From a virus (taxonomy: Duplodnaviria; Heunggongvirae; Uroviricota; Caudoviricetes): a stretch of DNA of 42,567 nt. Made by a program: the position numbers and the translations under genes. Location: positions 1 to 42,567 of the IMG/VR virus record IMGVR_UViG_2534681936_000017. One strand, written 5' to 3'. Below the pieces are notes generated by a model. That model made no database searches, was not told the DNA's origin, and saw nothing but the letters and a program-made list of their open reading frames with translations. This document shows, piece after piece, positions 1,575 through 27,102 of the stretch; position 1 is the stretch's first letter; every line of letters begins with the position of its first letter.

Positions 1575-2437
1575 CAGGCAGCCCTTACGATATAATTAAA
1601 AGCGATGTTACGAGGACGAGTTTCTGTACCTACATTTCCACTAATTTCGCCAAAACGTTTTACACTACGAGTACTAATAGCTCGTAGTGAGGAAGGTACC
1701 TTAATACCGGGTTCGTCTGTTTTAACTATTCCCCCGTCACCGTATGTAGCCAGTATTCCTGGGTTTACGCCTTCCCGTGCACTTCCTGCGGCGAGTCCGC
1801 CCCCTGTCCATAATTCCATATAGTGTGCATGGTCCAAAATTGTGTGTGGCTGCCAATTAAGCAAAGCGCGACCAGTATCAATCCCGCGACCGTCATCCCA
1901 GCCACGAATAAATTCACCGCGTAAATCAGGCAATTTATTGGTCGGGTAAGCCTTTGCCAGTTCCGGGTATTCTTCAGCAGAAAAAGCCGCACCATTGCAT
2001 TTCAGCCAGCCTGTTGGCGGTGTGGCTGAAGGCCACGGAACAGGTACACCAACGGGTAACGCTGAGCCTTCTCCCAAACCAAGGTTTTCGAGAGCCGTTT
2101 TCACCGTACCATCCGATTTGATATCGCCAAACGGATTTTGGCGACTCAGGTATTCAGCAGCAAACCCCGATCCCAGCAATTCAACAAAACCGGGCAGATC
2201 ACCATTATCAAGCACATCCCGTTGTGTTTTATCACTTACAAACTGGGCCAGAGCTGCAGCAATAAAGCTGGCCTGCCGAATAACCTTATTGACTTGCGCA
2301 CTGGATGCTTTCCCTGCTGTAAATCCGGATAAAAGCGCAGGCAACGCTTCCCATTCCTCCTGCGACATAACATTGGCATTTCGATCAGTTGCAAACGCTT
2401 TAAAGTCATTTTTCGCCATCAGAGTAATACTCCCCAT
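1574..2437 (-). CDS. Tail fibre protein (constant N-terminal part about aa 1-120 plus variable C-terminal part inside the invertible segment)
   Basis: 287 aa; position before Tfa; crossover site lies in-frame at codons 115-123. Confidence 0.75.
   Translation of the reverse strand: MGSITLMAKNDFKAFATDRNANVMSQEEWEALPALLSGFTAGKASSAQVNKVIRQASFIAAALAQFVSDKTQRDVLDNGDLPGFVELLGSGFAAEYLSRQNPFGDIKSDGTVKTALENLGLGEGSALPVGVPVPWPSATPPTGWLKCNGAAFSAEEYPELAKAYPTNKLPDLRGEFIRGWDDGRGIDTGRALLNWQPHTILDHAHYMELWTGGGLAAGSAREGVNPGILATYGDGGIVKTDEPGIKVPSSLRAISTRSVKRFGEISGNVGTETRPRNIAFNYIVRAA
2069..2094. repeat. Invertase crossover site (hix/gix-like), proximal copy inside the tail-fibre gene
   Basis: ttctcccaaaccaaggttttcgagag, imperfect dyad around central AA; resembles hixL TTCTTGAAAACCAAGGTTTTTGATAA from memory. 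Encodes ENLGLGE in the tail fibre; the distal site encodes INVGLGE in the alternate reading frame. Confidence 0.7.
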
Positions 2438-3099
2438 GCCCCTACATCAAAACCACTGATGAATTCGTTATCCATATCAAAACCAAAAAATTTAGAGCCT
2501 TCCGATGGAGTTTCCACCGAAGGTGTTTCAATGCCCCCCGCCCATACCCCGGCGGCTTTTACTGTGAGATACCCCTGTTTAATTGCCGCAATTAACTCAC
2601 GCGATACATCTGAAATATCAGCATCAGGAAAGACCCAGACCGATATCGTCATGTCCTGGTTATCGACTATCTGCATTCGCAGCCCGGATCCTGCTGTTGC
2701 AGCGTCAAGAATTGCTGGAAGCGAATCATTCCGTCCGTCCCAGTTATTAATCGCAATCTTCGCTTTAAGGATGACACGATAAGTTTCATCGCTGAGGTAC
2801 ATGTATCCGGAATCAGGATCGTATGGCCCCTGCCATACACCCTGATCATATCCAAGCCCGTCGGTATCCCAGCTGAAATAGACACCTGAGATAGGCTGGC
2901 TGACAACACGGCTACGCCCGATCCACAATCCCAGAATGTCAAGTTGCACACCAACCGCAGAGTCAATATCAAATGCAGTAATCAGCCCTCTGGTGGCCGC
3001 CGCAACATCAATAAGCGGCCGGGTCATCAGATCAACATGTGCAAGAAATTTAGGTTTGGTGACGTGGTAGTTCGTGATTAGTTCGGTGTATTTGCTCAT
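2419..3099 (-). CDS. Tail/baseplate protein (Mu gp48-like, putative)
   Basis: 226 aa, position between baseplate J-like gene and tail fibre. Confidence 0.5.
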   Translation of the reverse strand: MSKYTELITNYHVTKPKFLAHVDLMTRPLIDVAAATRGLITAFDIDSAVGVQLDILGLWIGRSRVVSQPISGVYFSWDTDGLGYDQGVWQGPYDPDSGYMYLSDETYRVILKAKIAINNWDGRNDSLPAILDAATAGSGLRMQIVDNQDMTISVWVFPDADISDVSRELIAAIKQGYLTVKAAGVWAGGIETPSVETPSEGSKFFGFDMDNEFISGFDVGAWGVLL

Positions 3100-4295
3100 G
3101 ACTCCACCGTTATAACGATATTTTCCGGGGTACAGGACGCAGATTCGTTGTATCTGATATCAATGTTTGATGACGACAAAGCCCCCGGGGATTTCCCAAT
3201 CGTCAGTTCCTGAATATCGTAATAGCGTGCATTCCCGCCACTCACCACGCCAAGATTCGCCGGTGAGTAAATGCGACTTAAAAGGACCGAATCACCAATC
3301 ATCAGACTATTGATATAGTCGGAAATAGCCTGCTGGATCTGCTGCCCTATCTGTGAGGTATAACCCGTAAAAACTTTTAATTTAATCCGGGCATAAACAG
3401 GTACATCACTGGAACGCGAGAATTTGATTACATGGGGATTGCCGTATTTATCCGGAACAGTAACGGATGTTGTACCGTGGGTGGCTGTCCCCTGGCCTTT
3501 ATTCCCTCTGATAGCCTGAGCAATATCCGTCACATCACCGCCATCCACAATTACAGCAACAGAGTGTGGCGGTAACCCGTTACCGTCCTCCGAACCAGTA
3601 TCGTTTTCATAGATTTTGTGGCGGGTTACACCGGTAACATTAGAAACAGCACCATCCAGTGCTTCAAATGGGGTTATTGATGGCAACGCAACACTTTGCG
3701 ACTGACGGATACGTAACTCCGCGTCAGTTTCTGCCGAAGTGCCCACAGTAGCCGCAGCAGGATTAGTTACCGAAACCCAGCCACGGGTTGGCGTATTAAT
3801 TTCAGTGATAGTTCCAGCCAGCGCCGCCACTGCACCACTGACGGAACATGTTGCGGTCGCCATCACTGTACCATCCACGCCGACCACTACTGAAGCAGGC
3901 AAACGCCATATCACATTATTACTGTCTTTCACGCTGCCATTAATGATGGTTGTTCCGGCAGTTCCTGCAAGAAGCAAATCAACCGTAGAGTTCGTCGCGC
4001 CTTTACGTGAAATACCATTTATTTTCACGTTACTGGTCAGTGCAGCCCCATAGCCGGTTGCCGGTGAAAAACAGTTGTAGACAGTTATCGCCATATTATT
4101 GGCATCATGAATCGCCAGCGCCATCAGAGCCACCATCTGGCCGTCTTTGCTGTCCGGTTCGAGGTAGGCATCACTGCCATAAATCTGCTGAAAATAGCTA
4201 ATCAGGGTGCTGAGTATCGTCTGATAATCAGGCGCACTGATCCCCTCCGCGGTTACCTTTGCAGATAAACCGAGAGAATCAAGGTTCAGAGCCAT
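3096..4295 (-). CDS. Baseplate J-like protein
   Basis: 399 aa, synteny within a V-W-J-type baseplate cluster; Ala/Gly/Thr-rich beta-type sequence. Confidence 0.65.
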   Translation of the reverse strand: MALNLDSLGLSAKVTAEGISAPDYQTILSTLISYFQQIYGSDAYLEPDSKDGQMVALMALAIHDANNMAITVYNCFSPATGYGAALTSNVKINGISRKGATNSTVDLLLAGTAGTTIINGSVKDSNNVIWRLPASVVVGVDGTVMATATCSVSGAVAALAGTITEINTPTRGWVSVTNPAAATVGTSAETDAELRIRQSQSVALPSITPFEALDGAVSNVTGVTRHKIYENDTGSEDGNGLPPHSVAVIVDGGDVTDIAQAIRGNKGQGTATHGTTSVTVPDKYGNPHVIKFSRSSDVPVYARIKLKVFTGYTSQIGQQIQQAISDYINSLMIGDSVLLSRIYSPANLGVVSGGNARYYDIQELTIGKSPGALSSSNIDIRYNESASCTPENIVITVES

Positions 4296-4648
4296 TACGC
4301 CTCCGATGTAACAGTCGTTATTCCATAAAGAGTGTCGATTTCAGCGGAAAACATGACACGTCGGGTCGTGGTATCCACCGTCGTATTGAAAGAGAGGATT
4401 GATTTAACGCCCCGCGTTTCGAGGATGCGCTTACGGATCGCCAGGTTGTAGGTTTCAGGCTTCTGCTTACCGAGTACGGACTGGATCCACGGAGTCCCCT
4501 CGGTGGTGTCGAGAAACCATTGCCCATACCACAATTCGAATCGCGTTTTTACCGCCTGCGCCACGGCCTCCGGTGAGTTAATCAGCCAGGTGTCATCACC
4601 GCTGCCAAAGGTGTAATCGCCATCGGCGTCTTCACGTCTGTATCGCAT
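4295..4648 (-). CDS. Baseplate protein (gpW/gp25-like, putative)
   Basis: 117 aa, position between spike/V-like and J-like genes. Confidence 0.5.
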   Translation of the reverse strand: MRYRREDADGDYTFGSGDDTWLINSPEAVAQAVKTRFELWYGQWFLDTTEGTPWIQSVLGKQKPETYNLAIRKRILETRGVKSILSFNTTVDTTTRRVMFSAEIDTLYGITTVTSEA

Positions 4649-5400
4649 CAGTTTACCCCGTCGGTACTGCTTCCACCGCGCTGAACACCACCATGAGTGT
4701 GCGTATCATCGATTGGCTTGCCGTTAGCCTTCACGCTCCCCAAGAACTCAACAGCACCAGTGATTTTTGAAGCCACACCAGAAACCACAGACCCCACCAT
4801 GCCCCCCATCCAGGTTAACAGGCCATGAATGGTTACTTTCTCAGAAAAATCAGCCAGAGGGGCAACCACATCAAGACCACCCGGAGCGACAATTTTAATT
4901 TTCCTGGTATCAGGATTAAGCTCAAAATAGGTGCTGCCGTCGTCACTACGCAACTGTGTGGCACTGGTATTAATACCGCTCATCTTCCTCGCCTGCGACT
5001 GGGGACCGACAATACAAAATGCATCCGATAAATCATGCATTCTGTCATCGACAGGCTCCTGTATCCCGCCACTCTGCCACCAGAAATCAATACAACGATC
5101 GGCAAAAATCACCAGACATTCATCACCGGCTTTAACCGGGAACGTTAGCGTACAGCCTCCGCCGCGCGGAAATACCACTGGCACATCCACCAGCAGGGGT
5201 AATGTCGTCGACTGGTTGATTCCATTTGAGTCCGGCTCATAGCCTTTAATCGCTGGTTGAACAACTACCGTTACCGTGTCCTGATCAAATGACTGGACGA
5301 TACCGGGCATAGAAACACGCAGCACCGACATGACAGAACCAGCAAGTCTTACATCGGCCTGTTCTTTACTGCCGAGTTGAGAGGAAAGTGAAACTGGCAT
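4648..5400 (-). CDS. Baseplate assembly/spike protein (gpV-like)
   Basis: Track ORF starts with GTG at 5445; ATG at 5400 with GGAG 5 nt upstream is the likelier start (MPVSLSSQ...). Confidence 0.55.
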   Translation of the reverse strand: MPVSLSSQLGSKEQADVRLAGSVMSVLRVSMPGIVQSFDQDTVTVVVQPAIKGYEPDSNGINQSTTLPLLVDVPVVFPRGGGCTLTFPVKAGDECLVIFADRCIDFWWQSGGIQEPVDDRMHDLSDAFCIVGPQSQARKMSGINTSATQLRSDDGSTYFELNPDTRKIKIVAPGGLDVVAPLADFSEKVTIHGLLTWMGGMVGSVVSGVASKITGAVEFLGSVKANGKPIDDTHTHGGVQRGGSSTDGVN

Positions 5401-5418: not shown

Positions 5419-5441
5419 AAACCCGCTCGACGGCGGGTTAT
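5419..5441 (-). terminator. Rho-independent terminator after doc
   Basis: Minus strand cccgc-N6-gcggg hairpin followed by TTTTTT, directly after the doc stop and overlapping the start region of the V-like gene. Confidence 0.5.
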
Positions 5442-5471
5442 ACACATTTTACGTTTACCGTTGATACGCTA

Positions 5472-5879
5472 TCAGTATCCAGTAATCGTGTCTGCCAGCA
5501 GCTCATTCTTATAATCTGACAAGAGTTTTAGTGCCAGTGCAGTATTATCACAATCAGCTTCTCCAGTAGCAGCAAAGATAGTCAACTTCACCAACTCCAT
5601 GGAGGTGTTAAGTTCATAGCCATTCATTAGCAAGAAAATGCTGGTGGCCTGGAAAGCTGTTCGCTTGTTGGCATCGTTAAAAGCGTGAGACTTCGCTATT
5701 GCTACCATATACATAGCGGCAAATTTAAATAAATCCTCACAGCCTTCATATATGTGCAGATTATGCACCCTGTTCAGGGCACCTTCGAGCTTACCTATAT
5801 CAGGCTGCCCGCTGTTCGGCAGCGTACTTTTCTGAATCGCAATAACCTCATCAACCGAAAGAAACGTAATCTCAGCCAT
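5472..5879 (-). CDS. doc: Doc toxin (Fic/Doc family, death-on-curing)
   Basis: 135 aa; contains HAFNDANKRTAF matching the Doc/Fic motif Hx(F)x(D/N)ANKR; start overlaps phd stop (TAATG). Confidence 0.85.
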   Translation of the reverse strand: MAEITFLSVDEVIAIQKSTLPNSGQPDIGKLEGALNRVHNLHIYEGCEDLFKFAAMYMVAIAKSHAFNDANKRTAFQATSIFLLMNGYELNTSMELVKLTIFAATGEADCDNTALALKLLSDYKNELLADTITGY

Positions 5880-6292
5880 TATTTATCTTCCAGTTTTTTT
5901 ATAATTTCCGCATGCTTAGTCTGAGTATGTTGCAAAGCTTTAATAAATGACTCTGATACGCCCTGCAGGGCAAGTGCAGCATTGGCAGCCTTCATCATTG
6001 CCTGGCGCGCCTCATCAGACTGCAGAAGGACATCTAATTGCTTAGTAAACTTCATGACTCCCTCCGTTACCTGTGGGGATAAATTAGATGAAATTAACTG
6101 TGCAAGATGCGCATCTATCGTTTTGTTTTGTGGCTTAATTTCTTTTCCAGACACCACCTTATCAACGGTTTTTGCACTGATAACAGTATCAGGCTTCCCC
6201 CGTTGCGTTACCGTTACACTCTCACCTGAGCGTAACAATTCCAGCGTGGCAGATAAATCCGAACGCATTTGTGTATAAGTAATGGTTTTCAT
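5879..6292 (-). CDS. phd: Phd/YefM-family antitoxin
   Basis: N-terminus MKTITYTQMRSDLSATLELLRSGESVTVTQRGKPDTVISA resembles YefM/Phd; start at 6292 has a GAGAGGG RBS; unusually long (137 aa) for this family. Confidence 0.8.
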   Translation of the reverse strand: MKTITYTQMRSDLSATLELLRSGESVTVTQRGKPDTVISAKTVDKVVSGKEIKPQNKTIDAHLAQLISSNLSPQVTEGVMKFTKQLDVLLQSDEARQAMMKAANAALALQGVSESFIKALQHTQTKHAEIIKKLEDK

Positions 6293-6303
6293 AGCACCCT
6301 CTC

Positions 6304-6315
6304 TGTACATGTACA
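6304..6315. promoter_or_regulatory. Perfect 12-bp palindrome TGTACATGTACA, candidate Phd/Doc operator
   Basis: Lies 12 nt upstream of the phd start codon on the coding strand. Confidence 0.35.
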
Positions 6316-6372
6316 GATTAGCGCATATTCAAGATGAGAGAGCAATGATTAATACAGTTGTGTTGGTAAAGA

Positions 6373-6708
6373 TCACTTCACCTTCCGGCAATCATACGTC
6401 CAGAACTCCCGAGGCTCGTCCATATTTTTGCGGATAACTTCAACGTTGAGGATCGGCTTGCCATTTCTGGCCACAAAATCCATCCCTAACCAACGCCCAT
6501 TACCCGGAATCATCCATTGGATGTTCACATTGTCATAATCACCTTCCTGTTTGAGAAAGATGATTTTCTGTGTCTCCGGTTTCTGTCCATTAATCCTTGC
6601 AAGTCCGTCTTGCGCTTTCCAGTTGATCGTAAATGGTCCGCAACCTGTATCAGCAAAGGAAATGAAGGAGATACAGACAAGTAAAACTGTCAACAATAGT
6701 CTTTTCAT
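6373..6708 (-). CDS. Small secreted (signal-peptide) protein of unknown function
   Basis: 111 aa; N-terminus MKRLLLTVLLVCISFISFA is a signal peptide (not a canonical lipobox); start overlaps the stop of the upstream hub-like gene (ATGA). Confidence 0.55.
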   Translation of the reverse strand: MKRLLLTVLLVCISFISFADTGCGPFTINWKAQDGLARINGQKPETQKIIFLKQEGDYDNVNIQWMIPGNGRWLGMDFVARNGKPILNVEVIRKNMDEPREFWTYDCRKVK

Positions 6709-7736
6709 GTGTATTTCGCCGCATCAATCCCTTTCGAGTTAAGCAATTCTTTGCCACCTTTAGCCAGGCAAAGCAGGTCCATATACCACGCCTGCCCTCG
6801 GGTGTCGCCAGTATAATCAATGCTGCCCACAATGTAATCACCGTCAGTATTAATACTGGCAGGCTGTGACATGCCTGGCAGACCGTTAACGTAGAGATTA
6901 CCGTCGCTTTCAGACTCATCCAGTCGTGCTGGCGATTTCGCTACCAGGTCATTACTCAAAGAGGCACGGTATACAGATGCCTGATCCAGACGAATAAGCC
7001 CACCGAGCTTAATATTTGGGTTAATCAGACATCTGACATTTACGCCAGCTCCCATCGTCTGCTGTGGCATACCGATAAGCCCGGTGTTAGCGTTCAACAC
7101 CGTAGCAACACCAATATATTTATCTTCAGGAACAATATTTACCAGATTATTTTCATACCACCAGTTAGCTTTACACTGCCCTGCGATATGATTCATCAAC
7201 CTTGATGTGTTTTGATAAACAACGCGACCTCGGGGAAATACCGTTTCCGGCATGTCAGGAACTGCGCCGGATTCGATGCCATATGGTTCGAATGATTTCA
7301 TACCCAGACTGAAAAGATCGCTGTACTTCCAGCCAGCGGCCACTGTGGTTTTCACACTTGCGTTCAGGTGGCCTTCCCAGCTGTCAATACACTGCAACAT
7401 GATCCAACTGTCTGTGGCATTATCTTTACCAGTGACAGTAAAACGGATATCTCCATTGAATATCATACCAACGTTTTCATCAGGATAATTACCTGCTGCA
7501 TCCGGTTGCCCCTTGTATCCGGCAATAACCTGTATACGCGAAAACTCCTTCTGCATAATCCGGTTCTGAGTGGTAGGGGATAGGTTATAAACCTTAAAAT
7601 TCCCAACGAATCCATTAAATATGGTCGCAGGCATTTTCTGAATATTGAAAGTGACTTTAAGCTCAGAAATTTTTATCCCGTCGCCCTTATCATCAACAAG
7701 CAATAATTCAAAGTGACGCATCCAGTTTTTCGACAT
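6705..7736 (-). CDS. Baseplate hub / tail protein (gpD-like, putative)
   Basis: 343 aa, between tape-measure-proximal tail genes and the V-W-J cluster. Confidence 0.5.
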   Translation of the reverse strand: MSKNWMRHFELLLVDDKGDGIKISELKVTFNIQKMPATIFNGFVGNFKVYNLSPTTQNRIMQKEFSRIQVIAGYKGQPDAAGNYPDENVGMIFNGDIRFTVTGKDNATDSWIMLQCIDSWEGHLNASVKTTVAAGWKYSDLFSLGMKSFEPYGIESGAVPDMPETVFPRGRVVYQNTSRLMNHIAGQCKANWWYENNLVNIVPEDKYIGVATVLNANTGLIGMPQQTMGAGVNVRCLINPNIKLGGLIRLDQASVYRASLSNDLVAKSPARLDESESDGNLYVNGLPGMSQPASINTDGDYIVGSIDYTGDTRGQAWYMDLLCLAKGGKELLNSKGIDAAKYT

Positions 7737-7738
7737 TG

Positions 7739-8041
7739 TTACTCCGTGAAAACATAGAGGTGTGAGAGCGTTCCAAGATCGAATTGCGTCGGATTCTCCT
7801 GCCCTGCCACATCGCAGAGCACCACCAGAGAAAAACCAAGATCCATATATCGATACTGTGCCAGCAGGTCAGCCCCCGTAATCATCGGTATACCTGATAT
7901 AATGGCGGAGCCATTGCTGTCAGCAAGATCCAGAACCCAGTACTCGCCTCGCCAGATGACAGACAGGTGATAAACCGAACCGTTAATTGTGGTGGCAAAA
8001 GTCTGATTGTCAGCAACCAATGGGATTTCTACGGCTTTCAT
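7739..8041 (-). CDS. Hypothetical tail protein
   Basis: 100 aa ORF tightly packed in the tail operon. Confidence 0.4.
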   Translation of the reverse strand: MKAVEIPLVADNQTFATTINGSVYHLSVIWRGEYWVLDLADSNGSAIISGIPMITGADLLAQYRYMDLGFSLVVLCDVAGQENPTQFDLGTLSHLYVFTE

Positions 8042-8044
8042 GAA

Positions 8045-8698
8045 TCACCTTCCCAGAAATAAATTGCTCAAATACCCATCAACAGTGGAGATACCTTCTT
8101 GCGCCATCTGTGGCAGCGATTTCAGAATGGAATTATTCGGCGGCACCGTTGTTTTGGTGCCTGTATTCTGCACAGCAGACGTTCCGACTCCCTCGGTCAT
8201 ATTGTTTTTCGGGGCAACCCTGACTGACTGCGTGGAGGTAATAATTACTTCTCTGAGGGTAAGTGTCGCCAGAAGCACATTTTCACTACTCTTATCGGTC
8301 GTGACCTCCAGCGTTTTTATCAACATATTGTTGTAAATACGCTTGCCGGTTGTCACATCGAAAGGAATACGATTCCGCTGCAGGTTAAGCAGTTCCTGAT
8401 ACAGTTCTTTCGGGCTCAGCCCCAGTAAACTGGTAGCAGTCAGGTTACTGGCAAAATCAAGCAGCGATCCGCCTCCGGAAAAACCGGTTTCCATCACAAC
8501 CTCAGAAGGGCGCCTGAATGCGTGTTCTGATATGTAACCAGCGCCCTCACCACTGGCACCAGCATTCGTGGGCTGTTCAACCGGATGTTCCGTAATTTCC
8601 AGGGCGTCAGTGTGCTTTTCGGTAATAACCACATCAGGAATAATGATTCCTATTGAGCGGGTTCGCTGCTGCAGTAAAACAGATAAAAAGTCCATCAC
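8045..8698 (-). CDS. Tail protein (putative)
   Basis: 217 aa, immediately after the tape measure gene with a 4-nt overlap. Confidence 0.45.
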   Translation of the reverse strand: MMDFLSVLLQQRTRSIGIIIPDVVITEKHTDALEITEHPVEQPTNAGASGEGAGYISEHAFRRPSEVVMETGFSGGGSLLDFASNLTATSLLGLSPKELYQELLNLQRNRIPFDVTTGKRIYNNMLIKTLEVTTDKSSENVLLATLTLREVIITSTQSVRVAPKNNMTEGVGTSAVQNTGTKTTVPPNNSILKSLPQMAQEGISTVDGYLSNLFLGR

Positions 8699-10701
8699 GC
8701 AGGCCCTTTCAATTGCTGTACCGCCCTGGCATTTACAGCCCCCTGCTTGTCAGCAATCAGATTAGCCGCCTCCTGAGGGTTGTTAACTCCATGAACATTT
8801 ATAACAGTCTGCTGGTTAAGGCTGCCAGCGGCGGCCTGATACGCCAGCGGGCTGTTCCAGTTTGAATAACCTTCTTTGCGCGCCATCGACTGCATCAATG
8901 CTCCCATAGTCCGGGGATCTGTAAGATTCAATATTGCATTCGGTGATACTCCCATCCATTTCGCAACATCCTGTGCATACTTTTTCGGATCGTTGTTATC
9001 ACCTGCCGGGGCCCAGGTACTGACAATATCCTGAATAGTCTGTAATGCCCGTCCGGTTGTTTTCCCGGTAAAGTAACGCATGAGCTGGTTTTTCATCGCC
9101 TCCCAGCCCTCAAGCGCTGATTCGAAAAACCGGAACCCTTTACCGCTCACCGGGCGAATGTTCCCGGGGTTATTGTTGCGATCAGCAAGAGTGCCGCCGC
9201 CGGGGATGTCGGGCTGGACGTTGGAGCCATGCACTACACCGTTACTCTGTCCCTGCCGGATAACTTTACCGGATCCCCCGTGCAACCAGTCCATCCACGC
9301 AGGCCATTCACGGACCTCACTGACATCCCTGCGTCCGATATCTGTTTTTATACCAATAGCAGCCAGCGTGTCGCCGATAATTCGCTTCGTATACATCAGT
9401 GAAGATTTTGCGCTATCGGCAATATTTTCTCTGTCACTAACAATATAGCCCGCGTAAAGCGCCCACAATTTAAGCCAGGGTGGGACCGGTAAACCTGATA
9501 TTTTTCCGAAAGCCCCCAGAACCTTGGATGCCCAGACACCCGCGATGAATGTACCGAGGATTTCCAGTGCATTTTGCCAGCCGCCAACACCATCTTTTAG
9601 TTCCAGAAGGTGATCACGAAGCCAGGTGATCGCATCCTTCGCTTTATCTATTGCCGGTTGCCATTTTTCCCAGTCGATAAGACTGTTACCGCCTTCTTTC
9701 CATGTTTTGTAGTCTTCCCACAAGAGACCGAGAGCCACGATCAGACCGGTAATCAGCCCTATAGGTGACATCCAGAAAGTAGAGTTAAGTATCCGCATGG
9801 CGACAACCAGACCGCCGATAACCTCTATCAGGGTTTTCGTTTCGGCATCCAGTTTCCCCCACCACTCGATGATATCTCCGACACCATCGACTATCCGAAA
9901 TGCTACCCGCCCGACTATCTCACCCAGCCAGAGGATCCCCTTTATGACCTTTGTGATGGTGACTTCAATTTTGGGAAAATTTTCAATTATCTTTTTGCGC
10001 AGGTTATCAATCTGCCCCGCCAGTCCGTCCGCAAGATTCGATCCGATTTTGTCCCGCGCCATCCCGGCCATTTCACCGAGCGATTTCAGCGAGGTCATAA
10101 ACCGGTTTGACGATAAGGCAGCCTGATCGGCATTAAATCCGATCGCTTTCACCATTTCTGAATACTGAGCGCTGAACTGCCCCACTCCGCGACGCATAGC
10201 CATCAGGGTATTTTCGTCAATGCCCAGCATCTGCGCATACTGGTTAGCCCGGTAATACGGCATGCTGCTGAGTTTCTGTCCAACGCCCGTAAAGATAGCA
10301 GCCATGTCACGCATGTTACCGCTGGCATCACGGGTCTGTACGCCCAGGCGATTCAGAAAGCCTTCTGCTCCGGGATTGTTACGAATAAACCGGGAGAGGC
10401 TTTCCAGAGAAGATCGCGCAGCGTCCACGCTGCCGCCAACCTGCGAAACCGCATAGCCAATAGACTGAATTCCCTGGACTGTCGCGCCGGTGCGCTGTGA
10501 CGCCCAGTAAAGATTATCCAGACCGGAGGCGATCTTAGCCGTGAAGGCCACCACGGACAGCGCGGCTCCTTCAACGGCCAGCCCCATTTTGATGACATTT
10601 GCAGTTGTACCGGCGAGGACAGAACCGAATTTTTTCGCTCCTGCATCATCCACACTGAAGCCAAGCGAGACGAGGAAATCTTTAATAGTTTCAGCGTTCA
10701 T
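8695..10701 (-). CDS. Tail tape measure protein
   Basis: 668 aa from ATG 10701 (strong GGAGAGAGGA RBS); long helical Ala/Gly-rich protein with internal hydrophobic segments; located after tube and chaperone genes. Confidence 0.8.
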   Translation of the reverse strand: MNAETIKDFLVSLGFSVDDAGAKKFGSVLAGTTANVIKMGLAVEGAALSVVAFTAKIASGLDNLYWASQRTGATVQGIQSIGYAVSQVGGSVDAARSSLESLSRFIRNNPGAEGFLNRLGVQTRDASGNMRDMAAIFTGVGQKLSSMPYYRANQYAQMLGIDENTLMAMRRGVGQFSAQYSEMVKAIGFNADQAALSSNRFMTSLKSLGEMAGMARDKIGSNLADGLAGQIDNLRKKIIENFPKIEVTITKVIKGILWLGEIVGRVAFRIVDGVGDIIEWWGKLDAETKTLIEVIGGLVVAMRILNSTFWMSPIGLITGLIVALGLLWEDYKTWKEGGNSLIDWEKWQPAIDKAKDAITWLRDHLLELKDGVGGWQNALEILGTFIAGVWASKVLGAFGKISGLPVPPWLKLWALYAGYIVSDRENIADSAKSSLMYTKRIIGDTLAAIGIKTDIGRRDVSEVREWPAWMDWLHGGSGKVIRQGQSNGVVHGSNVQPDIPGGGTLADRNNNPGNIRPVSGKGFRFFESALEGWEAMKNQLMRYFTGKTTGRALQTIQDIVSTWAPAGDNNDPKKYAQDVAKWMGVSPNAILNLTDPRTMGALMQSMARKEGYSNWNSPLAYQAAAGSLNQQTVINVHGVNNPQEAANLIADKQGAVNARAVQQLKGPA

Positions 10702-10878
10702 TATCCTCTCTCCATTTCTCAATGCGCCGCTGGTTATCCGCTTTTACCGCCAGATGGTCATTCAAGAGAGCAATGTCGTACAAATCGACAGAGCCATCTT
10801 TAAGTGCTGTATAAGGAATTAACCCGGCGTCAACCGGATTGAGAAGGTAGGACAGCCCGTCCGGCAGGCTGTTAAACG

Positions 10879-22701: not shown

Positions 22702-22887
22702 TCAGTCCCGAACGAACGTAACCTTCGTGTTTGTCGCTCGCCGTACAAGGCGCGCCGCTTCGCGTTGCATTTCATCGATAACTTTTGGCGTCATCGGCTG
22801 ATGCGCATATTTACGTTCAATCTCTGCAAAAATCCCGTTCATCGTTTCGCTGTCTGGTGGGATAACTTCAACGTTTAATCGTGCCAT
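22702..22887 (-). CDS. Small hypothetical protein after Rz1
   Basis: 61 aa with normal composition, in late-operon orientation, convergent on the ART-like gene; weak RBS. Confidence 0.35.
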   Translation of the reverse strand: MARLNVEVIPPDSETMNGIFAEIERKYAHQPMTPKVIDEMQREAARLVRRATNTKVTFVRD

Positions 22888-23146
22888 TGGTTTGTGCTGT
22901 CCTGTTTTTCTCAAAAGTCCTGATATCAGCCTTATCCCTGTTGCACTGTGCTAACGCTGACAGCAACGCAACATTCAGGTTAAGGCTGGCTCCCCACGTA
23001 AACGGGTCGGGTAAATCTGGCTGGGGTGTTTCATCCGTCAGACTGGCTGGTAACGGAACGACCGGCACCGACACGTATACCGTTCGCGTATTCGTGCAAC
23101 CGCTTAACTGCGCCAGAAGGAACGATACGAACAGCGCAATCATCAT
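22868..23146 (-). CDS. o-spanin (Rz1-like outer-membrane lipoprotein)
   Basis: Lipobox LAQLSGC, Pro-rich mature part; overlaps the 3' end of the Rz gene in a different frame. Confidence 0.6.
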   Translation of the reverse strand: MMIALFVSFLLAQLSGCTNTRTVYVSVPVVPLPASLTDETPQPDLPDPFTWGASLNLNVALLSALAQCNRDKADIRTFEKNRTAQTNGTIKR

Positions 23147-23423
23147 CCGCAACAGCCACTTTGATATCTTCCTGGGTTCTCTGTGACTCCAGTGCGATCT
23201 GCTGTTTTGCATGCTGGTTAGCCTCTATAACTGTGTTGATGATTTGCAGTGATTGCAGGACGTTACGGGTAATGGCTGTTGCTGATTCAGCATTTCGTAC
23301 AGCCTCATCAGCGCGCTCCTTTTCATGCTGATATTTGTTGTAGTAATGCCCGGCAGACCAGATGAAAGAACCGATGACGGTAACAAAGAAGGCAACAATA
23401 ACCAGCTTATATCTCAGCTTCAT
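23031..23423 (-). CDS. i-spanin (Rz-like)
   Basis: 130 aa, N-terminal TM helix then charged coiled-coil-like region; directly after the endolysin. Confidence 0.65.
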   Translation of the reverse strand: MKLRYKLVIVAFFVTVIGSFIWSAGHYYNKYQHEKERADEAVRNAESATAITRNVLQSLQIINTVIEANQHAKQQIALESQRTQEDIKVAVADDDCAVRIVPSGAVKRLHEYANGIRVGAGRSVTSQSDG

Positions 23424-23883
23424 TTACCACCCCACCAGCTTCTTTAAATCGGGCAATCAGGTCACCGATTCTATGTTCATACTGACCGTAACCAGCACCC
23501 GGCAACGAAGCCCAGATATTGCTGCACCGGTCGATTGCCTGACGAATATCGCCGCGGTCAATCATCGGTAAAGCGCCACGCTCTTTAATCTGCTGCAGCG
23601 CTACAGCATCCTGACTTTCTGGAGAAAAATCTTTCAGGCCAAGTTGCTTGCGGTAGGCATCCCACCAGCGTGAAAGAAGCTGGTAACGTCCGGCGGCTGT
23701 TGATTTGAGTTTCGGATTTAGCGTGACAAGTTTGCGGGGGTGATCGGAGTAATCAGTGAACAGTTCGCCACCGACAATAACATCATAACCGTGATTTCTG
23801 GTTTTCTGCCGTCCGTTATCTGTTCCTTCTGACCATGCCACCATATCAAGGAAAGCTTTACGCTGGGAATTCAGTGTCTGCAT
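23407..23883 (-). CDS. Endolysin, lambda R-like lytic transglycosylase
   Basis: 158 aa; NSQRKAFLDMVAWSEGTDNGRQKTRNHGYDVIVGGELFTDYSDHPRKLV... is near-identical to lambda R as recalled. Confidence 0.9.
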   Translation of the reverse strand: MQTLNSQRKAFLDMVAWSEGTDNGRQKTRNHGYDVIVGGELFTDYSDHPRKLVTLNPKLKSTAAGRYQLLSRWWDAYRKQLGLKDFSPESQDAVALQQIKERGALPMIDRGDIRQAIDRCSNIWASLPGAGYGQYEHRIGDLIARFKEAGGVVNEAEI

Positions 23884-23886
23884 TAA

Positions 23887-24237
23887 TTACTCCTTATGGG
23901 CACCGAACTTGTTACCGATGACCCTCATTGCCGCACCACGAATAGCATCAACACCAATCAGCCCCACCCCACCACCAATGGCAACAGAAAGTGATTTAGG
24001 CCATCCGACATACTCAAGCGCGGATGCAAAGGTCAGCGTCAGAGCACCACAAAGCAGAATCTCAAGCGTTTTTCGTTTCCAGCCGCCGCCACCGCCAAAA
24101 TAGGCAATGCGCAAACCAGCCATAATAATTGACATAACCACTGCGCCCAGCGGCGTATCTCCACGCCACCAACTTTGTAAGAGCTCCAGTAAGTCAGGCC
24201 AGGAATGAGGGGCATTGTGCATTTTCATAAGCCTCAC
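23887..24237 (-). CDS. Holin (three TM segments, dual-start MRLMKMH)
   Basis: 116 aa, three hydrophobic segments, charged C-terminus, immediately upstream of the endolysin. Confidence 0.75.
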   Translation of the reverse strand: MRLMKMHNAPHSWPDLLELLQSWWRGDTPLGAVVMSIIMAGLRIAYFGGGGGWKRKTLEILLCGALTLTFASALEYVGWPKSLSVAIGGGVGLIGVDAIRGAAMRVIGNKFGAHKE

Positions 24238-26234: not shown

Positions 26235-26264
26235 AATATAGCCCCGGATAACAGATTGAGTCAA
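26235..26264 (-). promoter_or_regulatory. Late promoter pR'-like (-35 TTGACT, 18-bp spacer, -10 TATATT); expected Q-utilisation region
   Basis: Hexamers read on the minus strand; -35 overlaps the Q stop codon, as lambda pR' sits just after Q. Confidence 0.4.
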
Positions 26265-26728
26265 CAGACGGTTTTTAGATCCCCGGAAGAGAATGCATCA
26301 CGCATCGGCAGATAGAGCATAAACTCTGCCATTTTCAACCACGCATCTATGCGATTACGGCACGTGGCGTAACACCACTCAGGGTGTGAATCATTCAGCA
26401 ATTCAGCCATTTTGCGCTTAGTCATCCCCCTCCCTTCATATCGTTGCCGGAGGATACAAATCAATCCTGGGTGTTCTGCCAGCACTTCACTAATCACCCG
26501 ATCAATGCATAACGCCTCTGCATCAGTACAATGCACCAGCCAGCTTTTTTGCTTGCCGTTGATCATATCCCGCAAAAAAGCCTCAAGCTCAGGTTTGTCC
26601 AGACCTGCTTTTTTCATCCTCCGGAGCGCCTCGTTAATTGCCGTTTTTGTCAGCTTTTTAGAGGTCAGCAACTGGTTGAACATATTCCCCGTCTTACCGC
26701 CACCAATATACGACCAGCGCCCCCACAT
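26261..26728 (-). CDS. Late-gene antiterminator Q (putative)
   Basis: Position upstream of pR'/tR' and lysis genes; start set at ATG 26728 (RBS AGGGAAA; MWGRWSY...) because the longer track ORF overlaps the upstream gene with Arg-rich junk. Confidence 0.55.
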   Translation of the reverse strand: MWGRWSYIGGGKTGNMFNQLLTSKKLTKTAINEALRRMKKAGLDKPELEAFLRDMINGKQKSWLVHCTDAEALCIDRVISEVLAEHPGLICILRQRYEGRGMTKRKMAELLNDSHPEWCYATCRNRIDAWLKMAEFMLYLPMRDAFSSGDLKTVC

Positions 26729-26811
26729 ACGTAGTTTTCCCTGAATCCAGACACTTTCCAGCGTAGTGAGACGAAGGTGTTCTCCGCTTTTTCCTGTATT
26801 CGTTGGGTAAA

Positions 26812-27102
26812 TCACAAATATCCCTCCTTTCTCCAGATTTCTTGTGTGCGAAAAACACCTTCTGCATGCATCAGGCGTAATTCTTCTTTGGTGTAATCGC
26901 TGGTTTTTACCCGCCCGTCGATTAGATCGTGGCATGAGCTACAGGCAATCGCCGCCTGCATATCGTGTGGTTTTGTCGCTGTTCCGCACGTTCCCGCCAG
27001 TCGGTAATGCGCCAGCACAGACGTTTCCGGATCGTGATTGCAGTAGCCAGGAATTCTGACGGTGCACATCTGCCCCCGCGCCGCTTTACGTAAATCCACC
27101 AT
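26812..27102 (-). CDS. Small Cys-rich zinc-binding-type Nin-region protein (YbcO-like, putative)
   Basis: 96 aa with several Cys/His (CNH, C..C, CSSCH); position upstream of Q. Confidence 0.45.
   Translation of the reverse strand: MVDLRKAARGQMCTVRIPGYCNHDPETSVLAHYRLAGTCGTATKPHDMQAAIACSSCHDLIDGRVKTSDYTKEELRLMHAEGVFRTQEIWRKEGYL

Follow-up and report, generated by a model that had tools for sequence, protein, structure and literature searches.

Introduction

Cor and Llp are small, exported, receptor-blocking lipoproteins that bring about exclusion and whose genes lie in the tail region of phage genomes, and gp15 of HK97 is an inner-membrane moron in the tail operon whose exclusion is directed at the tape measure protein (TMP). 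The TMP is also a component that the contractile tail releases into the periplasm. TMP-directed exclusion has been described as well for Ltp, a lipoprotein of the S. thermophilus phage TP-J34 (PMC3952083). In this study, these systems were compared with X111, our working name for the 111-amino-acid (aa) protein encoded at positions 6373-6708 of a 42,567-nucleotide stretch of viral DNA (IMG/VR record IMGVR_UViG_2534681936_000017; the whole stretch is referred to as the window). Spackle of phage T4 is helical and its gene, Sp, is early, whereas the X111 gene is coupled to a late baseplate gene. Spackle is described (PMC7677548) as a periplasmic protein that inhibits the tail lysozyme gp5 and acts in superinfection exclusion. 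The MliC/PliC/ACP inhibitors are 8-stranded barrels with a disulfide between beta1 and beta8, and occur in soluble (PliC) and lipoprotein (MliC) forms (PMC5507604; PMC2267010).

X111 resembles Spackle as a small phage protein exported to the periplasm by a signal peptide and kept out of the virion, export and non-virion status being predictions for X111. In each case, a contractile tail arriving at the cell would offer its muralytic device as the logical target, here a muralytic domain in the TMP. The two have no sequence or fold relationship, and X111 is modeled as an all-beta barrel. Ltp and HK97 gp15 are phage envelope proteins encoded in or near tail genes that block DNA entry via the tape measure, and fused relatives of X111 are lipoproteins with a TMP-derived motif; however, X111 shows no homology to either, is itself soluble and lacks a separate promoter, and a possible TMP interaction is suggested by the motif of those relatives. 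In contrast to Cor and Llp, X111 has no lipobox and no homology to them, and is predicted to be periplasmic rather than outer-membrane located. It shares with the MliC/PliC/ACP inhibitors the design of an exported antiparallel 8-stranded barrel of ~90-110 aa with Cys in the first and last strands, and their soluble/lipoprotein pair has a parallel in X111 and its fused lipoprotein relatives. By full-length similarity, X111 is a member of the PHROG 3443 or 'STY1065/STY2022' family. We find that X111 is very probably an exported accessory protein outside the virion, fixed behind the baseplate hub gene, and we tentatively favor a role against the penetration of the envelope by incoming tails.

The X111 gene and its junction with the hub gene

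6373 to 6708, minus strand: X111 gene, 111 aa, MKRLLLTVLLVCISFISFADTGCGPF...YDCRKVK (RefSeq WP_000826144.1; PHROG 3443)
6705 to 6708, minus strand: ATGA start/stop overlap of X111 and hub (X111 ATG at 6708-6706, hub TGA at 6707-6705)
6705 to 7736, minus strand: baseplate hub gene, 343 aa, directly upstream of X111 (PF22759 and phrog_196)

The first-pass annotation had placed a gene here without giving a strand. The gene lies on the minus strand, and it is no chance open reading frame (ORF) because it has 84 homologs at E<=1e-3 and a RefSeq coding sequence (WP_000826144.1). The ATGA overlap with the stop codon of a hub-like gene, also proposed there, is exact: in the minus-strand sequence ...cacATGAaaaga, ATG and TGA share three bases. 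The upstream product is indeed hub-like, matching Pfam PF22759 E217_GP41 (E 1.3e-07, above the gathering score) and phrog_196 'baseplate hub' (E 4.5e-80). This type of overlap was kept across other alleles and genera as ATGA, GTGA, TAATG or TAGTG. Because the overlap is conserved and a good Shine-Dalgarno sequence is lacking, X111 is probably translated by re-initiation after the hub stop, judging from the sequence. The overlap also agrees with the expectation that X111 is made together with the late baseplate genes. The 90%-identity cluster containing X111 is represented by a 344-aa hub protein and has many members of 343-344 aa, which is perhaps a clustering oddity arising from overlapping or read-through gene calls.

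X111 matched phrog_3443 (function unknown) over residues 5-111 at E 2.1e-42, and was 63% identical to WP_000755137.1, a RefSeq 'STY1065/STY2022 family phage-derived protein' encoded at the same position. The searched literature contained no mention of STY1065/STY2022, both family labels carry no function, and the available NCBIfam release had no model matching X111. The family is already known, only as an uncharacterised 'hypothetical' family. An exhaustive profile search of 1.8 billion representatives recovered just 53 clusters, which shows that it is small; the named members of the first homolog search came from Enterobacterales.

Export signal and predicted fold

6652 to 6708, minus strand: predicted Sec signal peptide, codons 1-19, MKRLLLTVLLVCISFISFA, with predicted cleavage after SFA
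6376 to 6651, minus strand: mature domain, aa 20-111, predicted 8-stranded up-and-down beta-barrel (AlphaFold2)

The signal peptide was called by rules on n-region charge, hydrophobicity, the (-3,-1) site and the lipobox. X111 has the n-region MKR, the h-region LLLTVLLVCISFI and the site SFA|DT, with the predicted cleavage reading MKRLLLTVLLVCISFISFA|DTGCGPF. The best 19-residue Kyte-Doolittle mean was 2.07 (residues 4-22), against a maximum of 0.57 in the mature part. A lysine or arginine was present in the n-region of 65 of the 67 full-length homologs, and in 60 of them a (-3,-1) site lay <=6 residues from the conserved Cys. Column entropy in the alignment was 2.78 bits over the N-terminal 19 residues, compared with 1.2-1.8 bits in the mature part. 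Since the N-terminus varies more in sequence than any other part yet keeps its export features, the signal peptide appears to be real, and the cleavable-looking signal peptide noted in the first-pass annotation recurs through the family. The accompanying statement that X111 is no lipoprotein also holds, as the lipobox [LVI][ASTVI][GAS]C was found in none of the 67 homologs; the residues before Cys23 of X111 are D-T-G.

Cysteines occur at residues 12, 23 and 107, with Cys12 inside the signal peptide. The two expected in the mature part, C23 and C107, were invariant in the 32 aligned homologs. In the AlphaFold2 model (mean pLDDT 87.7, pTM 0.74), C23 falls in the first predicted strand and C107 in the last; the two may form a disulfide. 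Variable positions clustered in the signal peptide and the initial strands; the final ~25 residues were almost invariant, and polar surface residues were strongly conserved in the C-terminal half. A homology and structure search had been proposed for this protein. It placed X111 in PHROG 3443 and gave no function: Foldseek with the X111 model returned only generic small barrels from the PDB, with nothing below E 0.44, and nothing below E 0.07 from viral models (BFVD), thus no specific structural relative. X111 was also considered as a duplicate of the C-terminal domain of the hub, and this was rejected (tblastn 27% identity over 70 aa, E 0.16; profile-profile hhalign probability 0.5%).

A fixed position bordering a variable cargo slot

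Loci were retrieved through the X111 protein itself, and the upstream gene was checked afterwards. The hub gene lay directly upstream of the X111 homolog in 97 of 98 loci (80/80 IMG/VR contigs, 13/14 loci from a collection with one genome per species, and 4/4 phage records, namely Klebsiella ST405-OXA48phi1.2 and Mulock, Escherichia vB_EcoM-683R1 and Salmonella SEN34), and the arrangement held down to 28% identity. Across the phages of Enterobacterales, X111 belongs to the hub region in fixed synteny and borders an insertion slot. The first-pass annotation had described a gene coupled into the baseplate operon; the overlap makes translational coupling likely, but X111 is not an inserted extra. 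A 516-aa ORF resembling a hub-X111 fusion (locus L022) arose spuriously from bases masked as N at 4574-4999.

5440 to 6372, minus strand: variable cargo slot, 933 bp, starting at the X111 stop codon and holding Phd/Doc
6292 (RefSeq start; longest ORF from 6310) to 5879, minus strand: Phd/YefM antitoxin
5472 to 5879, minus strand: Doc toxin
5420 to 5439, minus strand: terminator-like hairpin and T-run (stem AACCCGC/GCGGGTT, then TTTTAT), 20 nt before the spike ATG (5400)
4648 to 5400, minus strand: membrane-puncturing spike gene, 250 aa from the RefSeq start (PF18352 and Apex motif; RefSeq annotation)

Homology with close E. coli relatives breaks exactly at 6372/6373, the X111 stop, and at 5439/5440. 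Because it is lost at the X111 stop and resumes at the terminator-like hairpin, the Phd/Doc module is the moron and X111 the fixed gene. X111 is not a typical moron: it gave no promoter signal above shuffles and is kept behind the hub in nearly all loci, whereas the downstream Phd/Doc segment has a promoter, a terminator and a presence/absence polymorphism. A perfect 16-bp palindrome, TCTGTACATGTACAGA, lies at 6302-6317 just upstream of the Phd start codon (6292), and is likely the operator for Phd/Doc autoregulation. The hairpin at 5420-5439 closes the slot and is part of the backbone shared by every close relative; within the late operon it is presumably read through by Q-modified polymerase. 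Given the position of the hairpin, GTG 5445, where the longest spike ORF begins, is not the true start; RefSeq uses ATG 5400.

The distance from X111 to the spike ranged from 64 to 2,422 bp, with a median of 898 bp in 78 viral contigs. The slot of relatives held DUF4282, a pair of a TPR-like protein and one that we take from its sequence to be HEPN-like (Pfam gave no family), Arc/P22-antirepressor modules, a T5orf172 protein, DUF7946 and others. In one Pantoea locus (L015), the slot was empty at 64 bp. Some relatives (L006 4339-4785, L013, L023, L007) carried a second small gene 2-5 nt downstream of the X111 homolog. The product of this second gene begins with a transmembrane helix, contains a basic stretch and ends in a Cys-rich region that weakly resembles Phage_Mu_F (E 0.009). 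A different signal-peptide protein followed the homolog in L012 and L017. The hub-spike interval is enriched in envelope-targeted small proteins.

Two loci depart from this arrangement. In the chromosome of Pantoea sp. C3 (L021 4989-5339), a stand-alone divergent copy of 116 aa retains the signal peptide and both Cys; it adjoins an integrase remnant, far from any tail gene. In Hafnia psychrotolerans (L023 4692-5072), only the last ~24 codons are left after the hub, with no masked bases, followed by 2.2 kb of cargo that includes Arc/antirepressor-like ORFs. This remnant shows that the X111 gene can be lost from a prophage.

Allelic reassortment in near-identical modules

The comparison used a set of E. 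coli prophages that share 97-100% identity with the window in their TMP, Dit, plug, hub, spike, sheath initiator, J and wedge proteins. In this set, X111 was 99-100%, 65% or 60% identical at the aa level, and only the last ~12 residues of the hub travel with the X111 allele. Among the 27 viral loci with a hub >=93% identical, X111 was 88-100% identical in 10 and 59-70% identical in 17. The same cargo occurred with different alleles, and one allele with different cargo: Phd/Doc is found beside allele A in the window and beside the 60% allele in Br_190, DUF4282 beside allele A in R1 and beside the 65% allele in EC20017429. X111 alleles reassort independently of cargo, spike, tape measure and fiber type, and a search for co-variation with spike, TMP, Dit, plug, gp25, J, wedge or fiber gave none. 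Because the alleles are swapped within a frozen module with no co-varying virion partner, a structural role is disfavored and an antagonistic interaction is suggested; genes in antagonistic interactions are expected to reassort in this way when the rest of the module hardly changes. The spike also has two alleles in near-identical modules (~97% and ~66-68% identical to that of the window; loci L035-L114 and L029), which reassort independently of those of X111.

Lipoprotein relatives with a tape-measure-like motif

8695 to 10722, minus strand: TMP, 675 aa from TTG 10722
TMP aa 316-334: transmembrane-like segment, from hydropathy
9670 to 9717: TMP juxtamembrane motif E336-W351, EDYKTWKEGGNSLIDW, directly after the transmembrane-like segment
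8815 to 9186: TMP muralytic domain, aa 513-636

Relatives of ~290 aa (11-12 clusters, from Serratia and metagenomes) occupy the same post-hub position and consist of an xSGC lipoprotein signal, an N-domain of ~170 aa and the X111 barrel (L024 6001-6879, L025, L026; proteins P0091, P0100, P0179-P0188). Since they carry a lipobox where X111 has a Sec signal, the barrel domain is predicted to be exported by two different routes. The most conserved stretch of their N-domain is L-A-x-DDC-x-TWK-x-x-GKSLI-[DN]-W-x-G-E-x-C, in which the two bracketing Cys are both invariant; it matches the TMP motif EDYKTWKEGG(N/K)SLIDW (tblastn E 3e-5). A hidden Markov model of the N-domain detected all TMPs of the set, each at aa ~330-379 (E between 1.3e-6 and 0.03; 0.026 for the TMP of the window), and nothing else scored among 4,710 ORFs, the next best having E 1.5. 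An AlphaFold2 model of a fused relative, built from a 10-sequence alignment, gave a confident all-alpha N-domain and a poor barrel, with the TMP-like motif at a helix end and the following loop.

The muralytic domain of the TMP matched the PDB endolysin 7q47 (E 1.6e-4) and gp29 (E 1.3e-5), and Pfam missed it at E<=0.01 in the TMP of the window. Related TMPs are annotated in RefSeq as 'lytic transglycosylase catalytic', and one of them has PF01464 SLT. The motif shared with the relatives is the only functional lead, and at the sequence level it would link exported post-hub proteins to the tape measure.

Phage and prophage context

2419 to 3099, minus strand: wedge DUF2612
3096 to 4295, minus strand: Baseplate_J
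4295 to 4648, minus strand: sheath-initiator-like
7739 to 8041, minus strand: Pam3 gp18-like plug
8045 to 8698, minus strand: Dit-like
22868 to 23212: Rz1/LysC, lysis cassette
23031 to 23423: Rz-like, lysis cassette
23407 to 23883: ORF between holin and Rz, at the usual endolysin position, with no family match
23887 to 24237: lambda-S-type holin, lysis cassette
26261 to 26935: Q-family antiterminator, in the lambdoid part of the window

The minus-strand genes around X111 form a Pam3/E217-type baseplate and tail module, completed by fiber and fiber chaperone genes after the wedge. The window also encodes RecE/RecT and an integrase. Among named phages, Salmonella phage SEN34, a 'lambdoid myovirus' (PMC5261728), is its closest relative; the SEN34 paper contains no virion proteomics. 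A chromosomal prophage present in both E. coli O55:H7 DEC5A and FDAARGOS_946 matches the region at 100% identity, and the window is an E. coli O55:H7 prophage of the lambdoid, SEN34-like type with a contractile tail. Two further sources were set aside: proteomics of Serratia BZS1 as virion evidence, because BZS1 is absent from the phage records matching X111, and ST64B as a characterised relative, because its baseplate is Mu-type and unrelated. In the relatives L030 (1-1533) and L031 (1-1693), a pinE invertase with alternative fiber and fiber-chaperone segments lies beside the fiber genes; the plus-strand ORFs 171-584 and 581-1000 of the window, opposite the fiber chaperone, may be such an alternative cassette.

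No counterpart of X111 was found in the solved virion structures of Pam3/E217-type relatives. In Pam3, plug, hub and spike are the consecutive proteins gp18, gp19 and gp20, with no gene between (PMC11633184). In Pseudomonas phage E217 (L027), the start of gp42 (9595-10128) overlaps the stop of the hub gene gp41, and gp42 lies before the tail tip gene gp43. It is absent from the published virion map, which uses gp41 and gp43, and may be an assembly helper; as a counterpart of X111 it was rejected, having no signal peptide and no similarity.

Discussion

X111 is very probably an exported accessory protein that is no part of the virion. The first-pass annotation did not expect a virion component, and a virion role does appear unlikely from the relatives with a lipoprotein signal, the stand-alone Pantoea copy and the uninterrupted gp18-19-20 order in Pam3. 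From the export signals and these features, we infer a periplasmic location and non-virion status. The reading that we favor, as a tentative one, is a late-made periplasmic factor against envelope penetration by incoming tails, serving superinfection exclusion or protection from lysis from without. X111 would be made only when the Q-dependent late operon is read, by re-initiation at the hub stop codon, and would then be exported by Sec as a small beta-barrel, probably stapled by a C23-C107 disulfide, remaining outside the virion. In the periplasm of the infected cell (or of the lysogen, if expression is leaky), it may act on incoming contractile-tail phages of the same broad family by binding the muralytic domain or the membrane-proximal loop of the TMP once the tail tip has released it. 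This would either exclude superinfecting phages or, as T4 Spackle does, shield the cell from 'lysis from without'; here, both target and phenotype are what we infer. In a more specific and rather doubtful version, X111 and its fused relatives would be periplasmic gatekeepers targeting the TMP of incoming contractile-tail phages: the barrel would bind the muralytic domain of the TMP or its juxtamembrane loop EDYKTWKEGGxSLIDW, and the relatives would display a disulfide-locked decoy of the TMP loop.

Several observations weigh against a role in exclusion. X111 has no homology to any known exclusion protein, and searches of Pfam (E<=0.01), NCBIfam, PADLOC and PDB sequences gave no match. The TMP-like motif sits in the extra domain of the relatives, outside X111 itself, and the X111 alleles vary independently of the TMP, so that a TMP target would have to be contacted through conserved surfaces. 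The expression signals also fit poorly. No good Shine-Dalgarno sequence is present at the hub junction, and a consensus promoter scan gave 5 sites compared with 5.1 expected from shuffles; the overlap leaves no intergenic space upstream of X111, and the sole site there (6838-6810) falls within the conserved hub motif IDYTGDTRG. Low-copy late coupling is an odd design for exclusion, which is usually expressed in the lysogen or early, and late hub-coupled expression fits the protection of an already infected cell better than that of a lysogen.

A host-benefit role is unlikely. X111 would then be a lysogenic-conversion factor, a periplasmic inhibitor acting against animal lysozyme, colicin or peptidoglycan hydrolases of type VI secretion systems, similar to MliC/PliC/ACP or to orphan immunity proteins. 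The exported 8-stranded barrel of ~90 aa, with Cys in the first and last strands and with soluble and lipoprotein versions, speaks for such an inhibitor, as do the stand-alone copy retained in a bacterial chromosome and the position of the gene at the border of a slot for accessory and defence cargo. However, the signature motifs SxSGAxY (loop 4) and YxxxTKG (strand 6) were found in 0 of 85 family members, there was no Pfam MliC match (E<=0.01), and MliC, PliC and ACP were not among the top structural matches, so that membership in that group was rejected. Coupling to a late structural gene without an own promoter would also be unusual wiring for a conversion gene, and the family is confined to one phage tail type.

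It is improbable that X111 is an accessory factor of lysis or egress, that is, a late periplasmic protein tuning envelope breakdown or lysis timing, for instance by binding peptidoglycan, Lpp or the outer membrane. Late expression and export agree with this, the conserved polar surface of the C-terminal half suggests a conserved host partner, and small membrane or secreted proteins often follow X111 in relatives. The first-pass annotation had offered a lysis-associated factor as one option, which lost ground because a complete holin/Rz/Rz1 cassette lies 16 kb away (22868-24237); moreover, the invariant neighbor of X111 is the hub rather than lysis genes, and allelic reassortment is not expected of a housekeeping lysis helper. 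The other option offered there, surface-receptor masking of the Cor/Llp type, is unlikely as well, since X111, soluble and periplasmic by its predicted signals, could not cover the cell surface. Finally, a virion or assembly component, with the hydrophobic N-terminus as a helix that inserts a tail-tip protein into the membrane or tethers it there, or with X111 as a hub/spike assembly factor, is very improbable: the hub coupling is invariant, the gene lies between hub and spike, and E217 gp42 shows that hub-coupled helper genes absent from the virion map exist, but the Sec features and lipoprotein variants point to a protein that leaves the cytoplasm, where assembly takes place, none of the baseplate proteins follows the X111 alleles, Pam3 lacks such a gene, gp42 has neither signal peptide nor similarity, the apparent fusion in L022 came from N-masking, and a copy stands alone in Pantoea.

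In sum, whatever the function of X111, the locus defines a precise accessory-gene slot that runs from the X111 stop to the pre-spike terminator and receives toxin-antitoxin, antirepressor and candidate defence genes. If X111 is an exclusion factor, it would bring a new fold, a new wiring and possibly TMP mimicry in its relatives; in the doubtful gatekeeper version, it would be the first exclusion gene wired by translational coupling to the baseplate hub, and the relatives would contain the first TMP-mimicking exclusion device. An exclusion factor would also provide a new handle on the periplasmic role of the tape measure, and would explain a conserved 'hypothetical protein' of hundreds of genomes. 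The SEN34-like lambdoid myoviruses, a very common group of enterobacterial prophages known from E. coli, Salmonella, Klebsiella, Pantoea, Pectobacterium, Erwinia and Serratia, would then carry within their baseplate operon a periplasmic block to tail penetration with interchangeable alleles, which would bear on the prediction of phage-phage interference and of phage-therapy host range in Klebsiella and E. coli.

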